This document shows, piece after piece, positions 1,016 to 42,900 of a stretch of 64,000 bases of DNA. The notes beneath the pieces are model-generated. The model searched no databases. It was not told the DNA's origin and saw only the letters and a program-made list of their open reading frames with translations. A program made the position numbers and the translations under genes. This stretch comes from Pocillopora damicornis (lineage: Eukaryota), in assembly GCF_003704095.1 (NCBI RefSeq), contig NW_020846941.1, positions 1 through 64,000 of the forward strand, given 5' to 3'. The first letter of the stretch is position 1. Every line of letters starts with the position of its first letter.

Positions 1016-1240
1016 TCAATTTTGCATTTGATTGCGAGGAAACTCTTCAACAACACCACTAAGCAGGGTCAAAGACATGGAACAATCTTTTGCTTCCTTC
1101 ACGGTAGAGCTGAAAAATCCACCAGATCCTTGTTTGTTCATGTCCACAGCTATAGCTTTATCATTTGTTGGTCTTGAAGTGCAAAGCTTTCCATCAGCAG
1201 GGTTGAAGTACATTATTTCTTTGTTGGTCATGTTCTCCAT
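1016..1240 (-). CDS. Small uncharacterised 74-aa protein (IMYFNPADGKL...AIAVDMNKQGSGGFF + C-terminal extension)
   Basis: ATG in good context (AAG ATG G). Possible 5'UTR splice acceptor near 1287-1289 on the minus strand and AATAAA downstream near 743-748. Divergent from the kinase gene. No family securely recognised. Confidence 0.6.
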   Translation of the reverse strand: MENMTNKEIMYFNPADGKLCTSRPTNDKAIAVDMNKQGSGGFFSSTVKEAKDCSMSLTLLSGVVEEFPRNQMQN

Positions 1241-1546: not shown

Positions 1547-2302
1547 ATTAGAAAGTTGTTCTTTGTGATCAGACCTCTGAAATATGTAACGCGTCTGGCG
1601 AAAGCAAAACTTGCTGTGAATGAAATCACAGAACCAAAAAGAACTATTGCCACCGTTGTTTACCGCTCAACAGCTTACAGGACCGTGACAGAATAATCAC
1701 TGTAAGCGACCCGAAACCATATGACCCTCGGAGACGAGCCAGCCCGGCATACAAATATATTCGATGAGTCGCTAATCTGTTGTCATCAGTATCCATACAT
1801 TTGATGCGAAGAGCGTTCGTATTCCTTTTTCATGAAACAGACTATCACAACGACTAGAACTGGAACAAATAAGAAATTTGCGGAGGAAAAGAAGACTCTA
1901 GTTTCAAATAAAGGTAAGTTCAAAAATAGGAAGGTTGAGAGAACAAGTCAAGAAATATGATATAAACATAAGTTATGCTTTTCGGTTGACACCTATATCT
2001 GAATTAGTTTTTAGTGCATTAGCGATCTTCGAAACTTAACTCGCGAACATCGCGTGACAAGCGCTTCCTGATGAAAACAAATTAAATATTTTCGTTTCAC
2101 TAGTGGGAGTATCGCAGTGACATCTCATCGCCTGCAGCATTTCATTATCATTACTACAGGAGTACAGTCTCTCCTACTAACATTAATAAATGCATCCCTA
2201 TGTTGGCCTTTTGGCCTTAGTATTTCCTTCTCCGGCGGAACTTGGATAAAAACAATTGCCTCTGTCTCATTTTACAGGGAAGTAACTTAAGAGTCAGTTA
2301 AA

Positions 2303-4980
2303 ATGGGTGAGGAATTGGAAATCAAGATATGGGATTATCGAAAACTGAAAATCCGTAAAACTCTTGGACATGGTTCGTTTGGAACAGTTTATTTAGCGAA
2401 CTGTGTCGAGCCAGATGTGACAAATCATGTTGTGATGAAAGTCATGCACAACTCAGTGGCCATGAGAGATGACTCAAGAAGGCTTTTCATTAAGGAAGCC
2501 CTGTTATTAAAGAGTCTCAATCATGAGAATGTAGTCCGAATCTATGGTATTTGCATAAACCCTTTTACTATTATCATGGAGTACGTGGTTTTTGATTTTG
2601 AGCCTTTTCAAAGAAATAGGAAGGTTAGCACTTTGGACGAGTTTCTTTCGGAGATTGCTCGAGTGCCACAATCTGAAGAACATCGATTTGATCATCTAAT
2701 TCCAAAGATAGCAGTTGATATCACCAGAGGAGTTGCACATCTACATGGCCATGAAATTGTTCATCGCGACCTAAAGCCGATCAACATATTGATCTCCAAT
2801 CAGCATTACTCCAATCTTCAAGACAGGCGTCAGTTGAAGAGAATTCAGGCAGAGAGACCGATTGTATGCAAATTGGCTGATTTTGGCGAGAGCCGTTCTC
2901 AGTGGCTGCAGACAAATGGGCTCAGTGACCCTAACGCAAGCCAAGTATTCAGAGGGACAATTGCTTTCATGGCACCTGAGATTCTGTTGCGCGAACCAAT
3001 GGTACAAAGAAATAAACTTACCATGGACGATTTGAAAAAAGTGGATATCTGGGCGCTAGGGATGGTGTTTTACTGCTTGATTAACCCAGCTGACTCATAC
3101 CCATATCAACGAGACGGTTTCAATCAGCCCCTAGATATCATGAATTTTCAAAAACAAAGAAAACGTCCATCCTGTGACCCAAAGTACGAGAACAAACAGT
3201 CTTCAGCTTGGAAACATGTTAAAGATGTTTTTCATGCCTGTACAAACCATGATCCTCTCAGAAGACTAAAAGCAACACAGGTCTATGCTATTCTGGATGC
3301 TTCTTCCGCTTCCGTTACCCACAGCAGTCTAACGACAAGTATGTCTCTCTAATTCAGTTATAATCAATCTTTAACCTATGCTAGGTAGCCAGGAACCATT
3401 ATCACCAAAATTTGTTTTACATTTTGCACTGTGGAGATAAAGGCTAGGCCAACATTTCTGTAATTATCAAGGATAATGATGTTTCTTTTTGGTTTTCTAG
3501 CACTGAGGACTTTTCGATTTTTAGTGTATTGCTCTTTTTATCTACAGTTATGAAATGTATTACCTCATATTTCTCAGATGTGGTACCCCTTAAACAAGGA
3601 TTGTCCAGCGCCAGCCAGGGAACTTTTCAGTGGTATGCAAGCACACAGGGGGAGTCTGATGTTCAGTACATACTACGCAAGCTGAATGAAATTGCCGACA
3701 GTGTGGTGGATATGAGTCGCAATAAAGACTCCCGGGATCTTTGCATGTGCTTCCAGTGTAATGGTAAACAGTGGCAAGTCCGTTTTCCATCGAATTTTCC
3801 AGCTTCAAATGCCAGCTTGCATGTTGACGGAGTGTTTTACGCTATGGTTGGTGGTAATGCTATAAACACGTCCGTCAGAGCGCTGATATCAACAGTAATC
3901 CAGCCTAAAGGTACGCTGATTCATGGTGGTGCCGCACAAGTGACCACAGAACAGTGGTACGAGAGCATTCAAGGGGAGGCAGCTCTTCGTCATGTTTTAG
4001 ACGAGTTGACAAACTTTGCTGATAGTGAAGTGAATATGAGTCGACAAAAAGGCACACATGATGTCACGTTAAGTTTCACGCGCGACGGACATCACTGGGA
4101 AATCAGGTTTCCACCCGATTTTCCTAGATCTGAAGTAAACTTGTCAAATGGAGAACTCTCTAAAATAGTCAGTGGTGACAACATCAACACCGCCGTCCAA
4201 GCCATGATATCAGCAATAATTGAGGAGCAACCAACATGGGCTGACCGAAATCTTGTACCCGTGGCACGGATAAATGCAGAGCAGTGGTATGCTGGTGATC
4301 AAGGAGAGGCAGCTCTTCGATTCGTTTCCCAAGAATTGAGGAACATCACTGATAGTGAGTTAAGAATAAGTCGAGAAAAGGACACCCATGACGTCACGTT
4401 GACTCTCGAGTGCAAAGGACAACATTGGGAAATCAGGTTTCCATCGAACTTTCCGAAATCCAATGCGAGCTTGTTCAAGAGCGGAGATTTCTACGCAATG
4501 GCTGGTGGTGACCAGTTAGAAACAGCAGTCAGGGAGATAATCAATCGCATAAAGTTTTTTGATCAACCATTTCCAGAAATGTGTGGTAACTCTACAAGCG
4601 TGACAACTGAACAGTGGTATACCGGAGACTCAGGAGAGGCCGCTCTTAGATATGTTTTCGACGCGCTAAGGAAAATCGCCGACGGCGAGGTCAAGATGCG
4701 ACGCAGTACTGACACTCGAGACATCACTCTGAGCCTTCGCCGCCGAGGAAGAGAATGTACAATTACCTTTCCTTATAATTTTCCAAAATCCAATGCAAGT
4801 GTGTCCACGAACAGGGAAGACTACATAATGATCGGCGGGAATAATGTTGAAAATGCTGTTAGCGCTTTAATTAATCATATTACATCTGTAGATCCGTCGC
4901 ACTCAAACATTGCATCTGCGTTCCCGTCACACTTAACTCTTTCAGAAACCCAGGCAGGTGCCCTCTGCTACATACAATAG
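2303..4980 (+). CDS. Ser/Thr protein kinase (TKL-like) fused to four tandem UBC/RWD-like domains; exons 2303-3338 and 3578-4980, about 812 aa
   Basis: All kinase motifs present: GHGSFGTV, VVMK, alphaC Glu (FIKE), HRDLKPIN, DFG, APE, DIWALG. Donor GTATGT at 3339 and acceptor TTCTCAG at 3571-3577 are both phase 1 and join the two ORFs in frame. A 5'UTR intron (GTAAGT 1914 to TTTACAG 2277) precedes the ATG. Confidence 0.85.
3628..4880 (+). repeat. Four tandem ~110-aa domains (QWY-x4-GE-x-AL...W-x-I-R-FPxNFP-x-SNASL)
   Basis: QWY starts at 3628, 3952, 4282 and 4612 (spacing 324/330/330 nt). The four units align by eye. Confidence 0.9.
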
Positions 4981-4994
4981 ATTGAACATATTTC

Positions 4995-5920
4995 CATTTT
5001 GGATCTATCACATCTTTTCCATACGCGGTCTAAGGTACTTTCCAACGAGGAGACGCACCTTAATTTCAAAAATGACTTCCAGACTCGGTGAACCATTAGT
5101 ACAGCATTCTCTTAATATTTTAGAACGTAGTTATTTTCATTTCTTTGATAGTAGGCGTTTTGTAACTTCTTGAACCGTCCCCGACAGTGGAACACTAATT
5201 TTAAATTTTGCCAAGTAGTTTATTTTCATCAAAGTTTTTGTGACTCTTCTTTTTACTGAAGGACCAATTTGAGAAGAGAGTTAAGGGAAACCACTTTAAT
5301 TTCTAACTTTCTTTGTTTGTTCTGTTCGTTTTTTTTAATGATGGAGTAATTCATTTTAATAAGCGATCACTATCACACCGTAGTTCCAAGAAAAGCAGGA
5401 ACACAATGTCATGTTCATTGCATCACCCTCCCTGATCGGGTTGTGCACTATACAAATATATCTCCGCACTAACGTCATTTTGGATCTATCACATCTTTTC
5501 CATACTCGGTCTAAGGTACTTTCCAGTGAGGAGACGTACCTTAATTTCAAAACTAAATGACCTCCAGACTCGGTGAACCATTAGTATAGCATTCTTTTGA
5601 TATTTTAGAGCGTAGTTATTTTCATTTCTTTGATAGTAAGCGTTGCGTGACTTCTTGAACCGTCCCCGACAGTGGAACATCCTCTTTAAATTTTGCCAAG
5701 TAGTTTATTTTCATCAAAGCTTTTGTGACTCTTCTTCACACTGAATGACCAATTCGAGAGGAGAGTTAAGGGAAACAACTTTAATTTCTGAATTCTTTTG
5801 TTTTGTTTTTTTTGCTGGTTTTTTTTTATGATGGAGTAATTTATGCTTATAAGCGATCACCATCACACCGCAGTTCCAAGAAAAGAAGGAACAAATTGTC
5901 ACATTGATTGCATCACCCTC
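4995..5920 (+). repeat. Tandem direct duplication of ~440 bp (period 481 bp) downstream of the kinase stop
   Basis: CATTTTGGATCTATCACATCTTTTCCATAC starts at 4995 and 5476. Both copies run to GCATCACCCTC (~5430 and 5920). Confidence 0.92.
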
Positions 5921-7928: not shown

Positions 7929-10643
7929 ATGATGTCGTGGTGGAGAAGGTCACCCGAGTCGCAGCGAGGGAATTTTAATGTGGTAATCTACGAAAGTGAT
8001 TACAAACAGCTATGCGCTTGGGTGCTCAAGAAAACGAACATCGAAACTGGTGGAGATTTGTTTGGTTTGTGGGCTGACAAAAACACGGCTGTTATTCAGT
8101 TTGTTGTCGGACCTGGCCAAAATTGTCGAAGATCTTCAGTTTCTTTCTACCAAGATATCAGCTACTTGGAGGAGATTGGTTCCCACATGACAAAAAGTGA
8201 AGGCGTTTGTCATATCGGCGAGTGGCATTCTCACCATCAACTTGGTCTCGCCAGGCCAAGCGGGGGAGACGAGAATACTGTGTGGAACAACATGCCCACC
8301 TACAACTTGAAGAGGTTCGTGATTTTCATCGCCAACATAGAGAAATCACGAAAACATCCCTACAATGTGAATATTGGCTGCTTCCTGTTTGAGCTTGAGA
8401 GTGTCAATGGTAAAGAGAAAGAACTTCCGGTATTACAAGGAACATTCGAGATACTGAAAAAAGAAAATCCATTGAATGGGAAACTGTCGAAGAAGAGAGA
8501 AGAAGGTGCAGAGCATGACGAGATGGAAATAGAAATGGAATGTTTACAGATGAAGATATCTCCCGAGGGACACCCACGAGTAACTTATGTCGAATCATTC
8601 CCCTGCTTGGGGAAAAAGAGGCCTAAAACTGACGATGAATCAGGAAAAAAGAACAAAAAGAAAAAAAAGAAACCGAGTAAAGACGTCAAAGGTACTTCCG
8701 TTGTTAGCAAAACCACTCAAGGAAATGGAAACATGACGCCAGATGACCCCAAAAGCGGGAAGTCGAAAGGAGCAGAAGGCACCCACGAGACGGCCAGCAG
8801 TGATTCAAATGGGGATAATGATTCCTATGAAGGCCAAGCAGACAACCCCCAAAAAAGGACGTCAACAAGAGCAGAAGGCACCGCTGAGACAGCCACCAGT
8901 GATTCAAAGGAGGGTAATGATTCCCATGGAAGCCAAGCAGATGAGCCCAAAAGAAGGATGTCGACAGGAAAAGAAGGCACCACCAAGACAGCCACCAGTG
9001 ATTCAAATGAAGATAATGATTCCCATGGAAGCCAAGCAGATGACCCCCAAAAAGGGAAGTCGACAGGAGAAGAAGGCACAGCCAAGACAGCCACCAGTGA
9101 TTCATGTGAGGATAATGATTCCCATGGAAACCACGCAGATGACCCCTCCAAAGGAAAGTCGACAGGAGAAGAAGGCACGGCTAAGACAGCCACCAGTGAT
9201 TCAAAGGAGGGCAATGATCCCCATAGAAGCCAAGCAGATGACCCCCTAAAAGGGAAGTTGAAAGGAGAAGAAGGCACCGCCAAGACAGCCACCAGTGATT
9301 CAGATGAGGATAATGATTCCCATGGAAGCCAAGCAGATGACCCCCCCAAAGGAAAGTCGACAGGAGAAGAAGGCACCGCCAAGACAGCCACTAGTGATTC
9401 CTGTGAGGATAATGATTCCCATGGAAGCCACACAGATGACCCCCAAAAAGGGAAGTCGAAAGGAGAAGAAGGCTCCGCCAAGACAGCCACCAGTGATTCA
9501 AATGAGGGTAATGATCTCCATGGAAGCCAAGCATATGATCCCCAAGAAGGGAAGTCGAAAGGAAAAGAAGGCACCGCCAAGGCAGCCACCAGTGATTCAA
9601 ATGAGGGTAATGATTTCCATGCAAGCCAAGTAGATGACCCCCAAAAAGATAAGTCGACAGGAGAAGAAGGCACCGCCAAGATGGCCGCCAGTGATTCAAA
9701 TGAGGGTAATGATTCCCATGGAAGCCAAGCAGATGAGCCCAAAAGAAGGGTGTCGACAGGAAAAGAAGGCATAGCCAAGACAGCCACCAGTGATTCAGAT
9801 GAGGGTAATGATTTCCATGGAAGCCAAGTAGATGACCCCCAAAAAGGGAAGTCGAAAGGAGAAGAAGGCACCGCCAAGATAGCCGCCAGTGATTCAGATG
9901 AGGATAATGATTTCCATGGAAGCCAAGCAGATGACCCCCAAAAAGGGAAGTTTAAAGGAAAAGAAGGCACCGCCAAGACAGCCACCAGTGATTCAAATGA
10001 GGGTAATGATTTCCATGGAAGCAAAGCTGATGACCCCCCAGAAGGGAAGTCGACAGGAGAAGAAGGCACCGCCAAGACAGCCACCAGTGATTCAAACGGG
10101 GACAATGATTCCCATGGAAGCCAAGCGAATGACCCCCAAAAAGGGAAGTCGAAAAGAAAGGAAGGTACCGCCAAGACAGCCACCAGTGATTCAGCAAATA
10201 ACGCAGAGCCTCCTGGTAGAGACCCGAAAAAAGCTTTCAATCAGCTTAATCAGGATCAAACGTCAAGATCAAACAAAAATATGTTGGGGCAAGGGGAAGC
10301 GCCTATGGAAGAAAAGCAGACCAAATCCAGGAGTCAGACGTCGGATCGTGGTGCAAACAAGCCCGAAAACCCACATGACAACGACAAGGACAAACTAAGG
10401 GAAGGGCAGAAAAATGATGTCAGTAAAGCTGGAAGCAGCCAACCAACACCAGGAAAATCTTTCAAGGCTACAAAAACTACACCTAAGAACAAATCAGGAA
10501 CACCGCCGTCAAGACCTGTGCCTGGGAAAGCAGTACCAGTAAAACCAGCTGGTAAAGGAGCCAAGAAAAAAGTCGACGAAAAAGGCGACATTGGGAAGAA
10601 AGGTGGCCCCACCAAATCTACGACCAAAAAACTATTAAAATGA
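7929..10643 (+). CDS. JAB/MPN+ (JAMM) metalloprotease-domain protein with long repetitive, disordered C-terminus (paralog 1, 904 aa)
   Basis: ETGGDLFG (catalytic Glu) ... VVGPG ... HIGEWHSHHQLGLARPSGGD (HxH...SxxD Zn ligands). Basic NLS-like KKRPK/KKNKKKKKK. Single uninterrupted ORF. Confidence 0.88.
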   Translation: MMSWWRRSPESQRGNFNVVIYESDYKQLCAWVLKKTNIETGGDLFGLWADKNTAVIQFVVGPGQNCRRSSVSFYQDISYLEEIGSHMTKSEGVCHIGEWHSHHQLGLARPSGGDENTVWNNMPTYNLKRFVIFIANIEKSRKHPYNVNIGCFLFELESVNGKEKELPVLQGTFEILKKENPLNGKLSKKREEGAEHDEMEIEMECLQMKISPEGHPRVTYVESFPCLGKKRPKTDDESGKKNKKKKKKPSKDVKGTSVVSKTTQGNGNMTPDDPKSGKSKGAEGTHETASSDSNGDNDSYEGQADNPQKRTSTRAEGTAETATSDSKEGNDSHGSQADEPKRRMSTGKEGTTKTATSDSNEDNDSHGSQADDPQKGKSTGEEGTAKTATSDSCEDNDSHGNHADDPSKGKSTGEEGTAKTATSDSKEGNDPHRSQADDPLKGKLKGEEGTAKTATSDSDEDNDSHGSQADDPPKGKSTGEEGTAKTATSDSCEDNDSHGSHTDDPQKGKSKGEEGSAKTATSDSNEGNDLHGSQAYDPQEGKSKGKEGTAKAATSDSNEGNDFHASQVDDPQKDKSTGEEGTAKMAASDSNEGNDSHGSQADEPKRRVSTGKEGIAKTATSDSDEGNDFHGSQVDDPQKGKSKGEEGTAKIAASDSDEDNDFHGSQADDPQKGKFKGKEGTAKTATSDSNEGNDFHGSKADDPPEGKSTGEEGTAKTATSDSNGDNDSHGSQANDPQKGKSKRKEGTAKTATSDSANNAEPPGRDPKKAFNQLNQDQTSRSNKNMLGQGEAPMEEKQTKSRSQTSDRGANKPENPHDNDKDKLREGQKNDVSKAGSSQPTPGKSFKATKTTPKNKSGTPPSRPVPGKAVPVKPAGKGAKKKVDEKGDIGKKGGPTKSTTKKLLK
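8742..10193 (+). repeat. Coding minisatellite, 99 bp / 33 aa, about 15 units (GKSTGEEGTAKTATSDSNEDNDSHGSQADDPQK)
   Basis: The AGTGATTC (SDS) anchor recurs 15 times. First-to-last distance 8798 to 10184 is 1386 = 14 x 99. Confidence 0.95.
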
Positions 10644-22589: not shown

Positions 22590-22934
22590 GTTTTTGCTGG
22601 TTTCTTCCTTTGCTGGATACCAATGTGGAGTTTGTCTCTCTCCAATCGATTCTACCCAACACCAGTTCCTAGAGTGGTTCCATTGTTGGTGACATTTTTC
22701 GTGTTTTTAAGTAGTTCCATCAACCCCCTTATTTACGCGGCGACAAATAATGGATTTAGACAAGAGTTTCGCAAAATGCTGTTTTGTCGTCGCCAACGAA
22801 GGCAAATTGTCCCGAGACAAAAAAGAGCTGGGACAATCGTGGAGAACATTGAACTACAGGAGCATGCAGATGTCAGTAGAAATGTCACGTATATGGCCAT
22901 TTTAAAGATGAGTGCGAACGGAAGCATTCTTTAG
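22590..22934 (+). CDS. GPCR C-terminal part, near-identical paralog, 5' part lost in gap
   Basis: VFAGFFLCWIPMW...SSINPLIY...MSANGSIL*. Confidence 0.88.
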   Translation, partial: VFAGFFLCWIPMWSLSLSNRFYPTPVPRVVPLLVTFFVFLSSSINPLIYAATNNGFRQEFRKMLFCRRQRRQIVPRQKRAGTIVENIELQEHADVSRNVTYMAILKMSANGSIL

Positions 22935-23249
22935 AAAAGATATCCAAGATAATTAGACCGCAAAAGTAGTTGCCTTATGAGTTAGTCAATACACCACTGA
23001 AGTTAGAAATAAACCTAACTGGAAGTGGAAGGACTCTTTAGATTTTCTAATGAGACTGTTGAACTTGAAAACTACTTTTAGTGCTATTACCTTTTTTTCA
23101 AATTTTTATCTTCATTTTATCATATTTTTACATTTTTTAAAGGCTTTCTACTAGAAGGCAGAAAGCTCAGTGTAAGGTTTAGATAATTTTTTACCAGGGG
23201 AAGTATTGTTGTCCCATCATGCCTTTTAAACCTGATTCCAGTAATATTA

Positions 23250-23418
23250 TTTTTTTTTTTCACATCGTGTGATATAGTTCAACCACTCCGTTGTATATAT
23301 CACTGGATACTTCCCTTTTTATTACATCGTGTGATATAGTTCAACCACTCTGTTGTATAAAGCATTGAATATTTTCCGTTTTTTTTTTTACATCGTATGA
23401 TATAGTTCAACCACTCTG
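23250..23418 (+). repeat. Three tandem ~63-bp units
   Basis: ACATCGT(G/A)TGATATAGTTCAACCACTC at ~23262, 23324 and 23390. Confidence 0.85.
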
Positions 23419-25445
23419 GTACTGAATATTCTCATTAGTTCTGCAAGTGATACTACTAGTCCGTAAAATCGTGACAGTGACAGCCCTGGCAAATGCGACT
23501 ATTACTCAAACTGAAACATGGATCATTCATGCATATGGATGTCAAATGGGAAAAAATTTAACGAAAAGAGTAACTCAGAGTGTCACTTCCAAGTCGCCAA
23601 GAAAGTCATGTTATTTTACCCGACGCTCGGTGTAATGGCTACACTTTTCAGGTCGAGAATGACAGGTTACGCGATTAACACTGGACATTTTTGATTTCGA
23701 AAAACTTTGACATCTTGGCACAATAGTAACACAATTCACGCAGACAATAATTCCAAGCTGTTGTCAAAACAGTACGCCATTCTTTTAGATGTTTTTTATC
23801 TCGCGCCATTGTAAGCCAGTTTTTAAAGGTTTCCGACTGTTGCCGAAAGCTTACGTTTTCGATCGTTAAACGAAAGAAAGTTTTTAATCAAGTGACTCAG
23901 TCAGTCATTCCGATATGAAAAGCACACACTGCTACACTTATTTTATAGAATTGGTTAAATTTCATAAAATTCTTCTTTCTGTTTCTAAGCAACAACAGCG
24001 AGCTGCGAGGAGTTCATAGTCTGCTAATCAAATATTTTATTAAGGCTAAGATATTAACGGATTTCATTGAATCAGATAAAGGCACATTAACACTTCTTGG
24101 TTCCCTTTGACAGGTGCAACTGCCAAGAAAAACTTACTGAAGAAGACTTAAACCTTCTGAGGTCCATCAAATATTTTTTTCTTGTTACCACTGTTTCTAA
24201 AGATTTAAACTAAGTTTTGAATAAATTTGAGCCTAACCAGGTGAATTTCCTTTCGCTTACCGCCACCTCACACTGTCAGAAATTGCAATTCTTTTTTCTT
24301 CGATGGATTTATTTTAAAAACTCCTGAAGATCAGCCCGGAAAATTAACATATTTTTTTCATAACTTCCTCGTGTACTTTCGTAGGAAATATTATCGACCC
24401 TTATTTCGATTATGATTGAAACGCTCAAGGGGGCACCTCATAATTAAAATAGACTCTTCGGAGAAGTTGAGTATGACGGATAGGGATGTCTCTTTTTTAG
24501 GCCAGGTGATCACAAACAGGACATTTTTCACGAGTTGAAGTATAACATACAGCAAGGTACACCGTGTGTTTAAATACCGTGTGTTTAAATAAATTCTTTC
24601 CAAAAGGCCGATCAGTGTAGGTATGATTCATGATTACTGCTTTTCTGAATGGTGGTTTACTGCTTAGCTTTAAATGACTTAAATTAAAGACATCCGATAT
24701 TTATTTTGGCGGTTAGTTAGGCTTATTTCAAAATAGAAGTTTTTCAAAGCAGATTCTATTCACTCTCTTTAAGACTAGACTGACGAAGCGAAATGTTCTC
24801 ATGGTTTTCGTACACACCAACTTAATTCATTTGGGATGAAAACACTGACACAAAAACCGATGTGTTTGAATTGTTGAAAAGGCAGTAATCGCCCACTAAA
24901 AATTGCAAATTTGACATTCGATATTGAATTTCACATGTTCCTTATGCAATCACCTACCATCAGCCAAAAAAGGAAAACAATTCAATTAGTCTTAGCCCAG
25001 CGTCTTTAACAGAGGAAGATCTCTTTATATTTTCTTCCTGCTGTTCCTATTCCACGTTTCTCACTTTGGATGCGCGTTTTCATAATGCAGCGTAATTCTA
25101 TTAGTTAATTCTTTATCCTAATATGAGGAGGTACACAAAAGATAACTTTGCGTCGGTGTTTACAAATGGAAGCCTGAGGACAAAACTGGTTTACTGCAAA
25201 TCTTTCAGCAATATTTTGAAGATTTTTCGAGTTGATTCCTCACGTATTTTTCAGAAAGATATGCTGAGAAAGAATGTTAGTATAAACGCCATGCTTTTCT
25301 GGCTATGAATAAGTATGATATATCAAAGTTCCGGAGTTACAGACGGATGTCAGCTTGCGTGATGATGCCTGGGTAAATATTCTGTCAATCAGGAACGCAA
25401 CTCATGAAACTGAGTTCACAAGCGGAAGATCGTGAAAGGTTCAAA

Positions 25446-25727
25446 ATGGATGTCCTAGATCTTCCCCCAAGAAGCTTAGGTCTGGTTATCCTCGAATGCA
25501 GCATTTGTCTTTTGTTAAATATCGGTAGTTTAGTCGGTAATGGCATGCTTTGTGCCGCAGTCTACCGCAATCCAAGACTCAGATCCACGACCAACTTATA
25601 CATCATTGCCTTATCTGTCGGAGACCTCATTTGCGCCGTTCTTGAAATGCCGTTTACCTTTTGGACGTTGGTAGTGGGAAGATGGGCCCTCGGTGACGGG
25701 ATGTGCCAAGTTCACGGTTTTGTCGAC
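25446..25727 (+). CDS. GPCR N-terminal part (TM1-TM3), 3' part lost in gap
   Basis: MDVLDLPPRS...GN...LSVGD...WALGDGMC. The upstream ATG at 25404 is out of frame in the paralog, so 25446 is the likely start. Confidence 0.88.
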
Positions 25728-25827
25728 NNNNNNNNNNNNNNNNNNNNNNNNNNNNNNNNNNNNNNNNNNNNNNNNNNNNNNNNNNNNNNNNNNNNNNNNN
25801 NNNNNNNNNNNNNNNNNNNNNNNNNNN

Positions 25828-26193
25828 GTAATGATTAGTCTTGACGATTCGGATGTACCTGTTGAAGGCTGTAAGACCCATAGTCGCCGGAGGACAGTAA
25901 GTTGAGAAAACGTCGACAAAACCGTGAACTTGGCACATCCCGTCACCGAGGGCCCATCTTCCCACGACTAATGTCCAAAAGGTAAACGGCATTTCAAGAA
26001 CGGCGCAAATGAGATCTCCGACAGATAAAGCAATGATGTACAAGTTGGTCGTGGATCTGAGTCTTGGATTGCGGTAGACTGCGGCACAAAGCATGCCATT
26101 ACCGACTAAACTGCCGATATTTAACAAAAGACAAATGCTGCATTCCAGAATAACCAGACCTAAGCTTCTTGAGGGAAGATCTAGGACATCCAT
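25828..26193 (-). CDS. GPCR N-terminal part (TM1-ICL2), 3' part lost in gap
   Basis: MDVLDLPSRS...FNRYIRIVKTNHY; abuts the gap 25728-25827. Confidence 0.88.
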
Positions 26194-28034
26194 TTTAAAC
26201 CTTTCACGATCTTCTGCTTGTGAACTCAGTTTTCATGAGTTGCGTTCCTGTTTGACAGAATATTTACCCAGGCATCATGACACAAGCTGACATTCGTCTG
26301 TAACTCCGGAACTTTAATATATCGTAATTATTCATAGCCAGAAAAACATGGCGTTTATACTAACATTCTTTCTCAGCACGTCTTTCTGAAAAATTCGTGT
26401 GAAACCAACTCGAAAAATCTTCAAAATATTGCTGAAAGATTTGAAGTAATTAAGTCTCATTCTCAGGCTTCTATTTTTAAACACCGACGCAAAGTTTTCT
26501 TTTCTATACCTCCCTATATTGGCCTAAAGAGTAACTTCAGTAACAACCAATAGAATCTCGTTGCATTATGGAATCGTGCATCCGAGGTAAGAGACCTGTG
26601 CTGGTGCTATTGGGATGGGAACAACAGGAGGAAATACAACGAGATCTTCCTCTGTTAAAGACGCTGGGCTAAAACTAATTAAATTGTTTTCCCTTTTTGG
26701 TTGATAACAGGTGATTGCATTAGGAGCAAGTCAAGTACAATACCGAATGTCAAATTTGCGATTTTAGGGGGCGATTACTGCCTTTTCAACCTTACTGTGT
26801 TAGTCTTTATTTGAGCCTTCTTCGTGGGAGATGTGAGATAAAAACGACCACAGCGTCAAAATTCAATTTAGTGAAGAGCTTTTACTCATAGGAAGCGGAA
26901 GGACCTTGAAGTAATGTCAAAAGGACAGTGGATGGTCATTTTTCTTAATTTCCGCACTGCTTCTTTAAATCTACACTATTACTGATGAAAGCATCGTAAG
27001 GAAAAAACTTTTATCTAAAGTTTCAGCTGAGTAACAAGATTTTTCCAGAAAAAAATAATTAAAAAAAAAAAAAGGTGAAGACAAAATTTTTGTCGAAAGA
27101 TAAATCAATTGATTAGGCAGATTAATATGACAGACTGAACAGTAAAGGTAGCGAAAAGTTTTCACTGTTCACCAACACGGAAAAAAATAGAACTATACAT
27201 CGTGAATCCTTCTGTCGCATGTTTGCTGTACTCTGATGTAAAACAAACTTCATGGTGAATTAAAATTATTCTTGACAAATACCAAGTGCAGCGTTTAGAT
27301 AAGAAACACTAAAATATCAACATTTATAGATGTAAATCAATAGATGTATACCAGTTGTAATGAGGACAATAACATAAAAAATACGGCACAAATATATCTC
27401 TCGAACCACGGTAGCGCTTGAAATGTCCATTTCGACGACATCCCACAAAAAATAACGAACTGAGCTGCTTCACGTCCGCAGTTAAGCTATTTTATGTCAG
27501 TCTATGCTACGCACAAACTGACAAACAATTTTACAGTAATCAGCTGCCCAACTGACAAAAGAGCAATAACTTAAATGCACGATTTATAATTAACAATTTC
27601 CATCATTCATACGGAACCTTTGACAATTATGTTTTAGTATCTGACCAGCCATACGTCAAAAGAATTACAATGTAGCTGACCAAATAAAACCCAGCTGCTA
27701 TTGCAATGTAGTCTCATTTTAACTGCGCGCATGCGGTCAAATTTGGAAAAAAAATTCTTATCTAGTATGTCCATAGTAATCATAAGGATGACCCTTGAAG
27801 ATTCTCCAGTCAGTATTTAAATGGATCAGGAACTATCGCTGATAGACAATGGAATTGTTTAATAGTAAAACGATTACCGCGAAAATCTTTTAAGAGAAAC
27901 TTAAGAAGTTTTACCTTCTGGGTATGTTCAATGGCTCGATTAAATATTTAAGAAAATAGACCATTTTAGAGCCAAGTGACAAGATCCCGTGTTCCTTTGC
28001 GACCCGAGTTCAATCACGTCGTCATTTAATTCTC

Positions 28035-36425: not shown

Positions 36426-37151
36426 TCAGCGTGGAGGCGGGTATGGGTGATTACCGTGGGGTGGATGACGAGGTCCTAATAGGCCTCCTAGAACTCCATG
36501 CACCACAGCACCAAGGCCACCATCGGGTGGAGGAGGTGGGGCCGTGCCAGTTGGATACGGTGGAGGACCCACTCCAGGACCAGGATATGCATAAGGATTT
36601 CCCATTCCTCCAAAAGGTGCTGATCCAGGGTAAGGTGAGCCTCCTGGCACTGGTGGTGGGTAGGCTCCAGGTTGGGGTGTTGGCATCCCAGGGAAACCCG
36701 GGGCCGGAAACCCCGCACCCGGAAACCCCGCACCCGGGCATGGCCCTGGTTGAGGTGGAAATCCCGGTTGCCGACGATTCATAAGAATTTCCTTTGCTCT
36801 CCTTTTTTCATCTGGAAATTTAAAAGCGCTTTCCAGTGCTGATAAGTCATTGTCGGTGATGTGGGGCGAGATCGCTTCCATAGCTTTCATTCTGCGATCT
36901 TTGAAGTCGAAAGCACGGAGTATAGATGCAGCTTGAGAACATGTAATGCTGTACATGCGTGGAGCACAAGCATCAAGAGCATCCGACTTCGCATCATCGA
37001 ACGTAAATTCGGCAATAAGTAGAGCGACTTGTTCGCCAGATAGATATCCATAAGCACAAGACAGGCTCGATTTCAGTGCCTCTACCTTACGATCCTTGAA
37101 ATGTTGTTCTTTAACAGCCCGCCTGATGTTTTCAAAGCTGCCTGGATCCAT
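36426..37151 (-). CDS. DUF4476-domain protein with Pro/Gly-rich C-terminal tail (intronless, ~241 aa)
   Basis: F-x-D-x-K...LSGEQVALLIAEFTFDDAK...ITCSQAASILRAFDFKDRR pattern typical of DUF4476 (as in the PROSER1 N-terminus). First ATG at 37151. Confidence 0.75.
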   Translation of the reverse strand: MDPGSFENIRRAVKEQHFKDRKVEALKSSLSCAYGYLSGEQVALLIAEFTFDDAKSDALDACAPRMYSITCSQAASILRAFDFKDRRMKAMEAISPHITDNDLSALESAFKFPDEKRRAKEILMNRRQPGFPPQPGPCPGAGFPGAGFPAPGFPGMPTPQPGAYPPPVPGGSPYPGSAPFGGMGNPYAYPGPGVGPPPYPTGTAPPPPPDGGLGAVVHGVLGGLLGPRHPPHGNHPYPPPR

Positions 37152-37268
37152 GTTATGTCCTCCTCTCAGCGACTGTGACTTACTGATGGTGCATGTGATC
37201 ACGTTTCGAAATAAGTTCGCGACCTTGTTGATCACGTGACAAGCACACCTTACTATGTGTTGCGTGAC

Positions 37269-37373
37269 TAGCCTACGTGTAGCCGCACCCTCCCCTGCAG
37301 GGTGGAAAGGAGACGAGGGAACCCTACCTTCCGTTTCACTTTGGCGGGGGAGGGTACGGCTACACGTAGGCTA
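37269..37373. mobile_element. Palindromic mini DNA element, TAG...CTA termini, ~27-bp TIR, 9-bp TSD
   Basis: TAGCCTACGTGTAGCCGCACCCTCCCC ... GGGGAGGGTACGGCTACACGTAGGCTA; flanks TTGCGTGAC / TTGTGTGAC. Confidence 0.8.
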
Positions 37374-39902: not shown

Positions 39903-42900
39903 TTAAAACGTCAAAGAGTTTGAGATGATATTGTTCATTATACTCTCGATTCTGACCGTTCCAATCAACGGCGAGAAGAACAATTCCTCTGCAGCTCGCT
40001 GCGTGAGAACCCGAGTAGCTGGCAGCCGTAAAAGTATCTTTGCAAACCGTTCAGGATTGCTTGGGCGCTGTTTTTCAACATAAAGTTTAAGGGCGCAATG
40101 AGCCTTTTCTTGAAGTCTTTCAACTTGTTTAGGATTTTTTAAACTTGAACAGTCTGTGAAGGAGACAAAGAGAACATTTGCATTAGATTGACTTAGAGAT
40201 AAGATAATCAAATCAAACTAATCAAAGGGATAGGAAATTAAATAAACTATCAACAATTTAATCTACTCAAGAAATAGAAAATTGTTCACTTGATTGCAAT
40301 TATCGTCTCCAAAGACCTGAACTAACGGGAAAATAAGATGATATACTCATGAACTCAGCCCGCAGATTTCCACATATTGCGTTACGTTTTCCTTACTTCT
40401 CAGATTCTAAAAGCAATTAACACTCAAAATGGCAAATCATTCATTACAGCAATACATGAGCAAATTCCACATGGAAACTAGTGTTATAAGTCATGTAGGA
40501 AGAATCTGGCATGACATGTGTCTTATTAAGATTCAGTGATTGAGACACAAACTACACAACACAGTGAGGCTCTCCAGTTTTGTTGTTTGGTATGACTTTT
40601 GTAACGATCACATTTACACTTTGATGAAGTTAGAAGTATTTGGCATACCTGCATTGAAAAGTACTATTGTCTTCAGGAATGCATACTCCACAGAATCCAA
40701 CTCAAGCTTTTCAAGACTAAACAAGAGGTCTTTTACACTCATTATCTTCTCAACCATGTTTGGTTCTTTAGTTTGCACAGGAGACTTTCGATCTCCACCT
40801 CCTTCACTTTGTTCCATGTGTGAAGCAGCAAGTGTCAATAATGGTGACAAGGGAAAAGAACTTGAACACTGTGCAACACCCAGCATAAAAAGATCTGACC
40901 AAGTACTTTGTAGTAACACAAGTTGATCATTATTATCAAGACTGCGAAAGGCTTGTATGCTACGTGCCCAATCGACTGTCAGGAATAGGAGACGAGTGGC
41001 TATTTCATAAACATACTCCATAGATAATGTAGAAACACCCAATGTTGGAGGATTCAATTTAAATTGAAGATGTTCAGGATTTAGAATGCAGTCATTCTGA
41101 TCTGATGAGAGGAATTGAGAGAGAGACATTTGAGGTGTGCCATTCACTGGTGATGAGGCCAATGGGCTGTTTGGTGTAAAACATGGTGATTCTGTCTTTT
41201 CCAGAAAAACTGAATGCATTGATTGATTTGTAGGAGACAAACTTGCACTTCTTGTGTGGTTTTCCCCACTACTGTCCTCTGCAGACTTTATAAGTGGTTT
41301 TCTTTCACATTGCACAGCTGAGACAAATGTAATAAGAATCAGTAAATGTGGATATGTTTCATAACACATTTATAACATGTTCTCATCAAATGTCAAAACA
41401 AACAGAGGCTCACAGCCATGGGCAAAAACAGTTCAGCAAGGGATCTAGAATACCTGACTACTCTTCTTAGGGCAAAGCTTTGAATGAAAAAACTTTGATG
41501 AAATATATAGGTGCAAATCATACACAAAAGTAAGAAGTGCATCTGGGACAACTTACATAGAGATAAAAATAAAATTTAAAAAAAATAAAGAAAAACCCAA
41601 AAAATTGTTGGTAAATTTTTTACATTTTCAAAAGCTTGCTTTAGTTACAATAAAAAAAGGGCAACTTAAGCTCAGATGCCTTTTCCAGTATACAAACCAT
41701 TCAGGATATGGCATTGTGTAATCATTAGTAAAGGATTCTAAAACTTCACATGGCAGTGCATGCATCATCTTCTCCTGAAGATAGTATCATCTGTAGCACA
41801 GTGACATACGTGCGTACGTGTTGTCTGCCAGAGTTTGTTATGTAATACAAGATCATGTTTTAAATTTAAAGCAGTTGACGTTACAGCAAGTTGAGGCTGT
41901 ATATATTGCATATGCCTACGATATTCAAAAACTAGAATTACATACAGAAAAGATTTATAGCTGGGCGTCTCTAATGCTATACTTAGTTTCCTAGCCCCAT
42001 GCATAGCAGAGCTAATTTCATTATTTGCATTTTCATCCTTGCTTTATTCTTTTTGCATTATGTAACTTAAATGTATTGCCCCTTAAGTGAACCATGAAAA
42101 GTAATCCTTCATTAAGCTAATCTTGAGTGCATGCCATAACATATAGCACGAGCACAACAGACCTGACGAGTGACAGTGATTATTATGAAATGCCCTTTTT
42201 TAAGCCAAATTACTAAGAATGTGAGAATGTAAGAATGTGTTTTGCTGAATTACACACGAGAAACAGGCTGATCAATCTAAACAACAGCTCTGCGAAAGAA
42301 GAAAATCCCACTGTGCATTATTGATAACGTTTGCTAATCAAATAGAAGTACATATGAAAATAAACATTATGGCTGTTGCCATAAGCAGAAAACATATTTA
42401 AAAATGTACATGGTCCGTGTTGCACATATGACAGAACTGTTACATAATCAATGGTAGTCTGTATACAGGATTTTCACATAACAGAGTACGTGATCCAGTT
42501 TCACAGTAATGGATTTTGTATAAGGATCTGAACGGATGCTTAGAACATTTGCGACCTCCCTAAACCACTCACTGGTACAACAAAGAAAAGTACAGTAACT
42601 TGCTTTTTTTCCCCCATCTCGTGCTGTTGGTGTTTACTTAGCTCATAAGACTTCGTGACTCGCGCGCGCATCACTCACGCAAATAAAAAACGTGACCTCG
42701 AATTTTCAACGTTGTTTAGCGTGTTTGGACACGTGAAGATGCAAATTCGCTCGACAAACAAGATCTAAAGTAAGAAAAAAAACAAGACGACCTGACAACT
42801 AACATGCTTCTTTGAAAATACTCTTATTTTTATGAAAATGACCTCTCTCGAAATAGCATCATACAGAAAATCTTATTTCTGGTTGTTTCTACGCGCGTTT

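Follow-up and report, generated by a model that had tools for sequence, protein, structure and literature searches.

The window analysed here is a stretch of 64,000 nucleotides (nt) from the stony coral Pocillopora damicornis (contig NW_020846941.1 of assembly GCF_003704095.1, positions 1 to 64,000 of the forward strand). Near its start lies a spliced gene that encodes a protein kinase followed by four tandem repeats of one domain. A gene for a 74-amino-acid (aa) peptide stands head-to-head with it, and two genes for JAB proteases follow downstream. The features of this region are as follows.

1016..1240, minus strand: 74-aa peptide gene, likely a tag precursor, with hairpin MYFNPADGKL and a GGFF motif, head-to-head with the kinase
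1551..1913, plus strand: non-coding first exon of the kinase gene, start approximate (RNA joint 1911/2276)
1914..2277, plus strand: GT..AG intron in the 5′ untranslated region (UTR), spliced in RNA runs X2, X3 and X12
2303..3338, plus strand: coding exon, protein kinase domain (Pfam Pkinase, E 1.3e-38)
3339..3577, plus strand: GT..AG intron of 239 nt, phase 1 (from joining of the reading frames and RNA contigs)
3628..3903, plus strand: repeat 1, half-E2, UEV/RWD-like, predicted peptide binder (repeat alignment)
3952..4224, plus strand: repeat 2 (repeat alignment)
4282..4551, plus strand: repeat 3, folded alone (structure prediction)
4612..4881, plus strand: repeat 4 (repeat alignment)
4966..4980, plus strand: CYIQ-stop, predicted CaaX-type prenylation box (conserved Cys at -4)
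7929..10643, plus strand: JAB/JAMM metalloprotease with E..HSH..S..D intact and long low-complexity tandem repeats (Prok-JAB E 9e-4; PADLOC JAB E 1.4e-17; RNA contigs)
12410..13198, plus strand: second JAB gene, JAB domain 89% identical to that of the first

On the plus strand, the kinase and the repeats occupy separate open reading frames (ORFs; 2303-3352 and 3448-4980), and splicing from the GT at 3339 to the AG at 3577 yields a single frame of 812 aa (2303-4980). A first-pass annotation had proposed that a phase-matched 239-nt GT-AG intron unites the two ORFs as one gene, to be checked by RNA across the 3338/3578 junction. That joint was present in RNA contigs from 6/6 RNA runs of three studies (X1, X2, X3, X9, X10, X12), and the span from kinase to repeats was covered by one contig each in X2, X10 and X12. 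Kinase and repeats are confirmed as one real spliced gene, as had been proposed. In both unlabelled runs (X15 and X16) the intron is unspliced, and intron-containing RNA contigs at low depth were also present in X1 and X3. Other donors and acceptors preserve the frame on paper; RNA shows only the 3338/3578 joint. The donor ACAA/GT is retained in six genomic kinase copies on other coral contigs. A further RNA joint at 1911/2276, with GT..AG at the cut +2, marks the 5′ UTR intron. This exon and intron, the CYIQ box, the head-to-head peptide gene and the two downstream JAB genes go beyond what the first-pass annotation had recorded. Kinase and repeats already form one gene in the NCBI models for Pocillopora meandrina (kinase 98% identical to that of the window), Oculina, Acropora cervicornis and Montipora, which leave the domain unnamed. 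A first-look search of the coral's own genome, which sets a lower bound, found no second kinase-repeat gene; a diverged repeat on contig C351 escaped the first-look searches and was recovered only by a local profile. Around the gene, a 447-bp stretch within 424-870 was missing in three runs (also as DNA-like contigs), eight additional bases were seen at position 1007 in X3, X12, X15 and X16, and a duplicated element of ~300-480 bp lies directly 3′ of the kinase gene (4995-5900).

The whole 812 aa consist of kinase, four repeats and a short tail. All kinase motifs are intact (GxGxxG, K46 as the VAIK Lys, the alphaC E, HRDLKPxN, DFG, APE and DxW), and judged by these motifs the domain keeps the hallmarks of an active eukaryotic Ser/Thr protein kinase. 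The established CaaX prenylation motif places a Cys four residues before the end of the protein. Cys occurs at -4 in 25 of 44 homologues, compared with 0-2 for any of the remaining positions between -1 and -12, and it stands at -4 in only 4 of 143 other repeat-bearing proteins. We predict that the CYIQ tail is a CaaX box and would be farnesylated. Related kinases without repeats bear other C-termini. A second repeat subtype is likewise fused to the kinase (P0322).

The four repeats start at spacings of 108, 110 and 110 aa, each comprising a folded unit of ~93–95 aa plus a linker, and are 36–48% identical in pairs. An alignment of 141 repeats taken from 40 proteins has invariant W, Y, G, R, P and F columns, with P57, F60 and P61 kept in 99–100%. 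The motifs read in the first-pass annotation, a GEAALR helix and an FPxNFP turn, hold as a general pattern and fail in detail: repeat 1 reads GESDVQYILRKL rather than GEAALR, and repeat 2 has FPPDFP. Its observation that no Cys is conserved after the FPxxFP motif was borne out, the best column holding Cys in 34/141 (24%).

Folded alone, repeat 3 gave a model with a mean predicted local distance difference test score (pLDDT) of 93, comprising a helix (7–22), strands (30–33, 40–46, 49–55), FPSNFP, two more strands (64–68, 71–76) and a final helix (81–93). As modelled, the topology matches the UBC/RWD/UEV layout of a helix, a three- to four-stranded sheet, a P-x-x-[YF]-P turn and a further strand. 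It corresponds to the first half of an E2, with the cysteine segment absent and one helix only after the motif; the marks of an active E2 (a Cys after an HPN-like motif, C-terminal helices) are lacking in the repeats. A Foldseek search with one repeat, which had been suggested as a check, placed many E2s first, weakly (best E 0.05, template modelling score 0.36–0.49, or about 0.4), and the four-repeat model gave long poor alignments only. VIA-align matched the repeat to FANCL (Z 7.0, root-mean-square deviation (rmsd) 3.0 Å, 87 residues aligned), the E2 of Cap2 (Z 6.8, 2.7 Å, 85), the Vps23 UEV (Z 6.5, 3.3 Å, 92), the Tsg101 UEV (Z 6.4) and RWDs (Z 5.6–6.0). By hhalign, the repeat matched the system's own E2, described below, with 77.7% probability (pairwise E 1.9e-5, 38 columns) when cyanobacterial members were added. 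In the Atlas, a cyanobacterial repeat scored 0.79–0.87 to the UFC1, E2-CBASS, BRE and UQ_con clusters; the window repeat itself lay nearest DUF5688, at 0.82 (below 0.9). One of six cyanobacterial repeats had sub-threshold Pfam matches to RWD (E 0.003) and UQ_con (E 0.004), a Pfam scan of the repeat exon returned nothing above cut-off, and, when PDB sequences were searched with profiles built on the alignments of the E2 and the repeat, every row had E ≥ 0.1. Three results count against an E2-like assignment: Z values of 5.5–7.0 for E2-like folds tie with those for the unrelated Med17 and capping protein (7.4 each), none reaching 8; hhalign with coral repeats alone gave only 8.6%; and the repeat lacks the second half of an E2. 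Weighing these, we consider it likely, with moderate confidence, that the repeat is a cysteine-less half-E2 of UEV/RWD-like type. The earlier view of a catalytically dead UBC/RWD-like module thus has moderate support from several concordant but weak lines (topology, the profile link, the Atlas neighbours and the sub-threshold Pfam matches), and is qualified by the tied Z values and the absent half.

A profile of the repeats returned 158 representatives at E ≤ 0.001; the following counts refer to the 150 listed, in which P0135 and P0165 look spurious and were kept. Of the 150, 71 carried a JAB domain, with metal ligands intact in 30, and two carried the kinase. Where 130 aa or more precede the first repeat, JAB was present in 66 of 80. 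Fusion to JAB is what the first-pass annotation had named as strong support for the system. Named repeat-bearing members came from stony corals, an anemone and an octocoral. Many coral JAB-repeat proteins lack the HSH metal ligands (a pseudo-JAB plus reader domain) and occur in tandem arrays (L020–L027). The repeat domain is also fused to Death/TRADD-N/TPR in P0046 (Oculina; a single gene model, maybe merged) and to long coiled coils in P0107 and P0136 (Dendronephthya).

One JAB-repeat protein served as the lead to 11 cyanobacterial loci. In all 11, genes for a JAB-repeat protein, an E2, a peptide and an E1 follow in this order on one strand, and the repeat profile matches the C-terminus of the JAB protein of these operons at E 5e-7 to 5e-13. 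The peptide gene is free-standing in nine loci and present only as an N-terminal fusion to E1 in two; such fusions occur in four loci overall, and the E1 is split in one. The operon peptide (~60 aa; 63–78) consists of a hairpin, LxFDPxTGxL, a GFF motif and then a variable tail. It has no match in Pfam, NCBIfam or PADLOC and is the only small gene conserved. The ICH cysteine of the E2 is invariant (13/13 aligned sequences). An E1, an E2 with its catalytic Cys and a JAB of the active type are encoded together in 11/11 cyanobacterial loci and on coral contig C687. The best library matches were PADLOC E1-E2, E2 and JAB and NCBIfam Cap3, below curated cut-offs where these exist, and neither a CD-NTase nor a beta-grasp ubiquitin-like protein is conserved in the 11 loci. 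The flanks of nine of the 11 (L051–L061) hold a gene with helix-turn-helix and NB-ARC/STAND domains, mostly upstream and divergent.

By sequence match, all four parts (JAB, E2, peptide and E1) are encoded by this coral. Its genome has six E2s, one intact E1, seven JAB matches and several peptides, and the E1 matches cyanobacterial E1s at E about 1e-110. Contig C687 brings E2, JABs, E1 and peptides within about 13 kb (G000:C687:94361-107582; L043, L044), as a mostly intronless series of a poly-hairpin ORF, an E2, two JABs, a ThiF/E1 and two peptide genes. The window peptide shares the hairpin and GGFF with the peptide of the bacterial operon, and RNA contigs of X12, which carry no strand, cover 642-1420 around its gene. 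The head-to-head layout of peptide and kinase recurs in three loci (the window, L022 and L024); L018 and L019 have the order repeat end, peptide, JAB. ORFs of three to four tandem hairpins without the GFF end (L018:3011-3400, L019:3865-4140 and G000:C687:94361-94882) are possible multivalent ligands or decoys for multi-repeat readers. The first JAB gene of the window (7929..10643) contains no copy of the repeat domain, and its low-complexity tail spans 8600-10250. At the two JAB genes, RNA contigs end loosely at 10739-10906 and one joint leads from 13500 back to 10709, which suggests that they have 3′ sequence that is shared or duplicated. A triple-JAB ORF runs off the end of C687, and C687 may adjoin the start of the window's contig. 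Elsewhere in the genome, two peptide genes ending MAAQGFF accompany a double JAB (G000:C268:68382-73084), and a degenerate JAB with one repeat domain adjoins three E2 genes (G000:C351:243476-254520).

Homologues of the E1 were found in Desmophyllum, Actinostola, Dendronephthya and the sponge Oscarella. In a quick, midpoint-rooted tree of 45 rows, chosen among 120 listed from a total of 1268 matches, the animal E1s form one clade (SH-like approximate likelihood ratio test, SH-aLRT, 100), ordered as sponge, octocoral, then anemone with stony corals, and set apart from bacteria. This clade follows host phylogeny; it speaks against contamination and argues for a long presence of the E1 in animals; the tree does not bear on the direction of transfer. 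In the window, the JAB genes are followed by a cluster of intronless rhodopsin-type G protein-coupled receptor (GPCR) genes (14718-26232), with two N-gaps flanked by inverted duplicates (22108-22934, 25377-26232) that look like an assembly artefact, and by these features:

36426-37370, minus strand: DUF4476 protein with a Pro/Gly-rich tail
40614-41369, minus strand: nuclear receptor ligand-binding exon
51585-54170, minus strand: PGAP2IP exons
61658-62005, plus strand: FG-repeat nucleoporin-like exon

Complex prediction for a cyanobacterial repeat with its own peptide gave scores of 0.57, 0.61 and 0.61, compared with 0.02 for the best of three controls. The mark applied to this score was reached by 51/78 solved and 2/108 mismatched pairs. 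The runs agreed in at least 71% of contacts, with a partner pLDDT of at least 48. In the model, the peptide hairpin (residues 23–28 and 33–37) pairs with the first strand of the repeat (29–34) and also contacts its helix (Y5, Q11, L14, K15, F18). At the interface, Y5 and R32 are invariant in 16/16 aligned domains, including all four window repeats, as are F28, G33 and L35 of the peptide (17/17). The repeat is thus predicted to bind the LxFDPxTGxL hairpin through a face formed by a conserved Y, L-K/R-x-x-F and M-S-R.

The eIF2-alpha kinase GCN2 (EIF2AK4) combines an N-terminal RWD, a pseudokinase, a kinase and a HisRS-like domain. Like it, the window protein joins a kinase to a dead E2-like domain, and the RWD of GCN2 aligns with the repeat (Z 5.6, rmsd 4.3 Å, 91 aligned). 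However, the window family has two to four C-terminal copies, shortened to one final helix, and a CaaX tail, and the window protein lacks the pseudokinase and the HisRS-like domain, so that it does not have GCN2-type architecture. GCN2, with which the first-pass annotation had compared the gene, is the wrong frame because the repeat derives from the JAB of a separate system of E1, E2, JAB and peptide, whose peptide it is predicted to bind.

The system would work much as bacterial conjugation systems do. In type II CBASS, too, E1, E2 and JAB act together (Cap2/Cap3), and the E2 of Cap2 is a fold neighbour of the repeat (Z 6.8); in contrast, the present system has no conserved CD-NTase in the 11 loci, keeps E1 and E2 separate, occurs in animals and has a ~60-aa peptide as its presumed substrate. 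It shares the four-gene logic of modifier, E1, E2 and JAB with Bil (BilABCD) and operons 6a–6e, as set out in the accessible part of PMC11354881. For class 6e operons, the part of Iyer et al. (2006; PMC1779556) available to us proposes that inactive E2/RWD-like domains bind the modifier. Unlike in those operons, the modifier here is a short hairpin-plus-GFF peptide that matches no beta-grasp family, JAB carries the inactive E2-like domain, and there are animal copies and a kinase reader. As predicted for the repeat, the dead E2 fold of the Tsg101/Vps23 UEV readers serves as a binder. TAK1-TAB2/3 and TBK1 are ubiquitin-clustered kinases, and the window kinase may similarly be activated by multivalent tag binding; it differs from both groups in placing reader and kinase in one chain and in a ligand that is not ubiquitin. 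Pathways for peptides made on the ribosome and modified after translation (RiPPs) that depend on ThiF and have a RiPP recognition element (RRE), such as MccB and PaaA, also use a short precursor, sometimes E1-fused, a ThiF enzyme and a small precursor-binding domain. They differ in that E2 and JAB are present here, a set found in no class in the accessible text of PMC12596934. Table 1 of PMC4878875, a source available in part, lists a 'thif family protein' among anthozoan genes of bacterial origin, which may or may not be this E1. Neither the system nor its animal copies nor the kinase fusion turned up in our literature search, which did not extend to most subscription papers or to preprint supplements, and the accessible parts of PMC3239186, PMC8195603 and PMC3417536 do not describe the system.

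Since the kinase gene lies amid animal copies of a bacterial ubiquitin-style gene set, it likely converts an undescribed tag into a signal, and there is a good chance that it is the signalling arm of an undescribed animal tagging pathway. The specific explanation we favour, to which we give not quite an even chance, is that the protein is a reader kinase anchored at the membrane, which recognizes a peptide tag other than ubiquitin in a multivalent manner and is switched on when targets bearing several tags cluster it; the idea that the repeats form a multivalent sensor controlling the kinase, which had been put forward as an inference, keeps that standing. The gene structure, the origin of the domain in JAB-repeat proteins and the clustering of the genes are observed, and from the known chemistry of E1, E2 and JAB a course of tagging, targeting and activation can be proposed. 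JAB would trim the peptide at or near the GFF motif; the E1 would adenylate the newly made C-terminus; the E2 would carry the peptide as a thioester on the cysteine of its ICH motif; and the peptide would be attached to lysines of targets. In the ancestral JAB-repeat protein, the repeat domain may have brought the protease to the tag. In stony corals, a kinase would then have taken the place of the JAB catalytic domain, and the reader domain would have been multiplied two to four times, so that multiply tagged targets or poly-hairpin scaffolds could recruit, cluster and trans-activate the kinase. By analogy, its output is probably in an immune or stress response.

Several points weigh against this explanation. 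The hairpin of the window peptide has diverged (FNPADGK), and the complex was modelled for the cyanobacterial pair rather than the window's own, by a method unvalidated on peptides and with the peptide's own fold uncertain. Among coral repeats, the excess conservation at interface columns, which were mapped by hand, is borderline (0.77 vs 0.66, p = 0.05). Ten of the proteins in the tally of fusions had themselves gone into the JAB profile, the CaaX tail is missing from one kinase paralogue, the scores behind the UBC/RWD call are weak, and the immune role is borrowed from CBASS and Bil.

The predicted binding of peptide by repeat would equally fit a tailoring pathway, in which the repeats act like RREs, the kinase phosphorylates the precursor, and E1, E2 and JAB mature a free product (e.g. 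a macrocycle) or regulate attachment. Leader peptides are bound by strand addition, as is the modelled hairpin, which has Ser/Thr in and near it, and the peptide and kinase genes stand head-to-head in three loci. In several RiPP classes, the C-terminus of a peptide is activated by a ThiF-like enzyme (PMC12596934, accessible text). We regard tailoring as fairly unlikely, however, because no kinase or other tailoring enzyme is conserved across the bacterial operons, because avidity sensing accounts for four readers and a membrane anchor more readily than a one-to-one substrate does, and because a tag-binding domain on a JAB is in keeping with removal from conjugates. Distinctly unlikely, in our judgement, is that corals repurposed the domain for an unrelated ligand, leaving its position in the cluster as a relic of the fusion's origin: none of the four repeats has lost the residues predicted to bind the peptide, other corals share the arrangement with the peptide gene, and the second subtype (P0322) is also kinase-fused. 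This would nevertheless accommodate the fusions to coiled coils in Dendronephthya and to Death-TPR in Oculina (one gene model) and the other C-termini of related kinases without repeats, and there is precedent in GCN2, whose RWD binds Gcn1.

UEV and RWD domains bind E2s, and the fold neighbours of the repeat (FANCL, Cap2, the Tsg101/Vps23 UEVs and RWD domains) would suit a role in binding the system's E2 or E1, through which the kinase would dock on and regulate the conjugation machinery. We think this improbable, given that the peptide complex, the sole one modelled, passed on the repeat's conserved face. Finally, the cluster might be symbiont or cyanobacterial contamination, or the join of kinase and repeats an annotation artefact; in favour, most of the E1, E2 and JAB genes have no introns, and their nearest relatives are bacterial. 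Two introns spliced in polyA RNA, the presence on this contig of coral genes for GPCRs, a nuclear receptor and PGAP2IP, homologues on coral scaffolds of 34–52 Mb and the separate clade of animal E1s make this extremely improbable.

Animals are not known to use protein tags other than ubiquitin-fold modifiers. The reader-kinase explanation would extend to a broader proposal, which we hold tentatively and at somewhat longer odds: that sponges and anthozoans run a second ubiquitin-style tagging pathway, shared with bacteria, with a short hairpin peptide in place of a ubiquitin fold, operon-like clusters and its own E1, E2s and JAB erasers, and that the stony-coral reader kinase wires the tag into signalling, probably in innate immunity. 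If true, a writer, eraser and reader set for a non-ubiquitin peptide, common to cyanobacteria and early-branching animals, would add to the post-translational modifications of animals and would be a case of a whole bacterial operon built into animal signalling. Because the kinase-reader fusion points to an output, it also hints at the function of the uncharacterised bacterial operon, and because every part is small and expressible, the idea can be put directly to the test. Reef corals, whose immune and stress pathways are poorly mapped, transcribe these genes.

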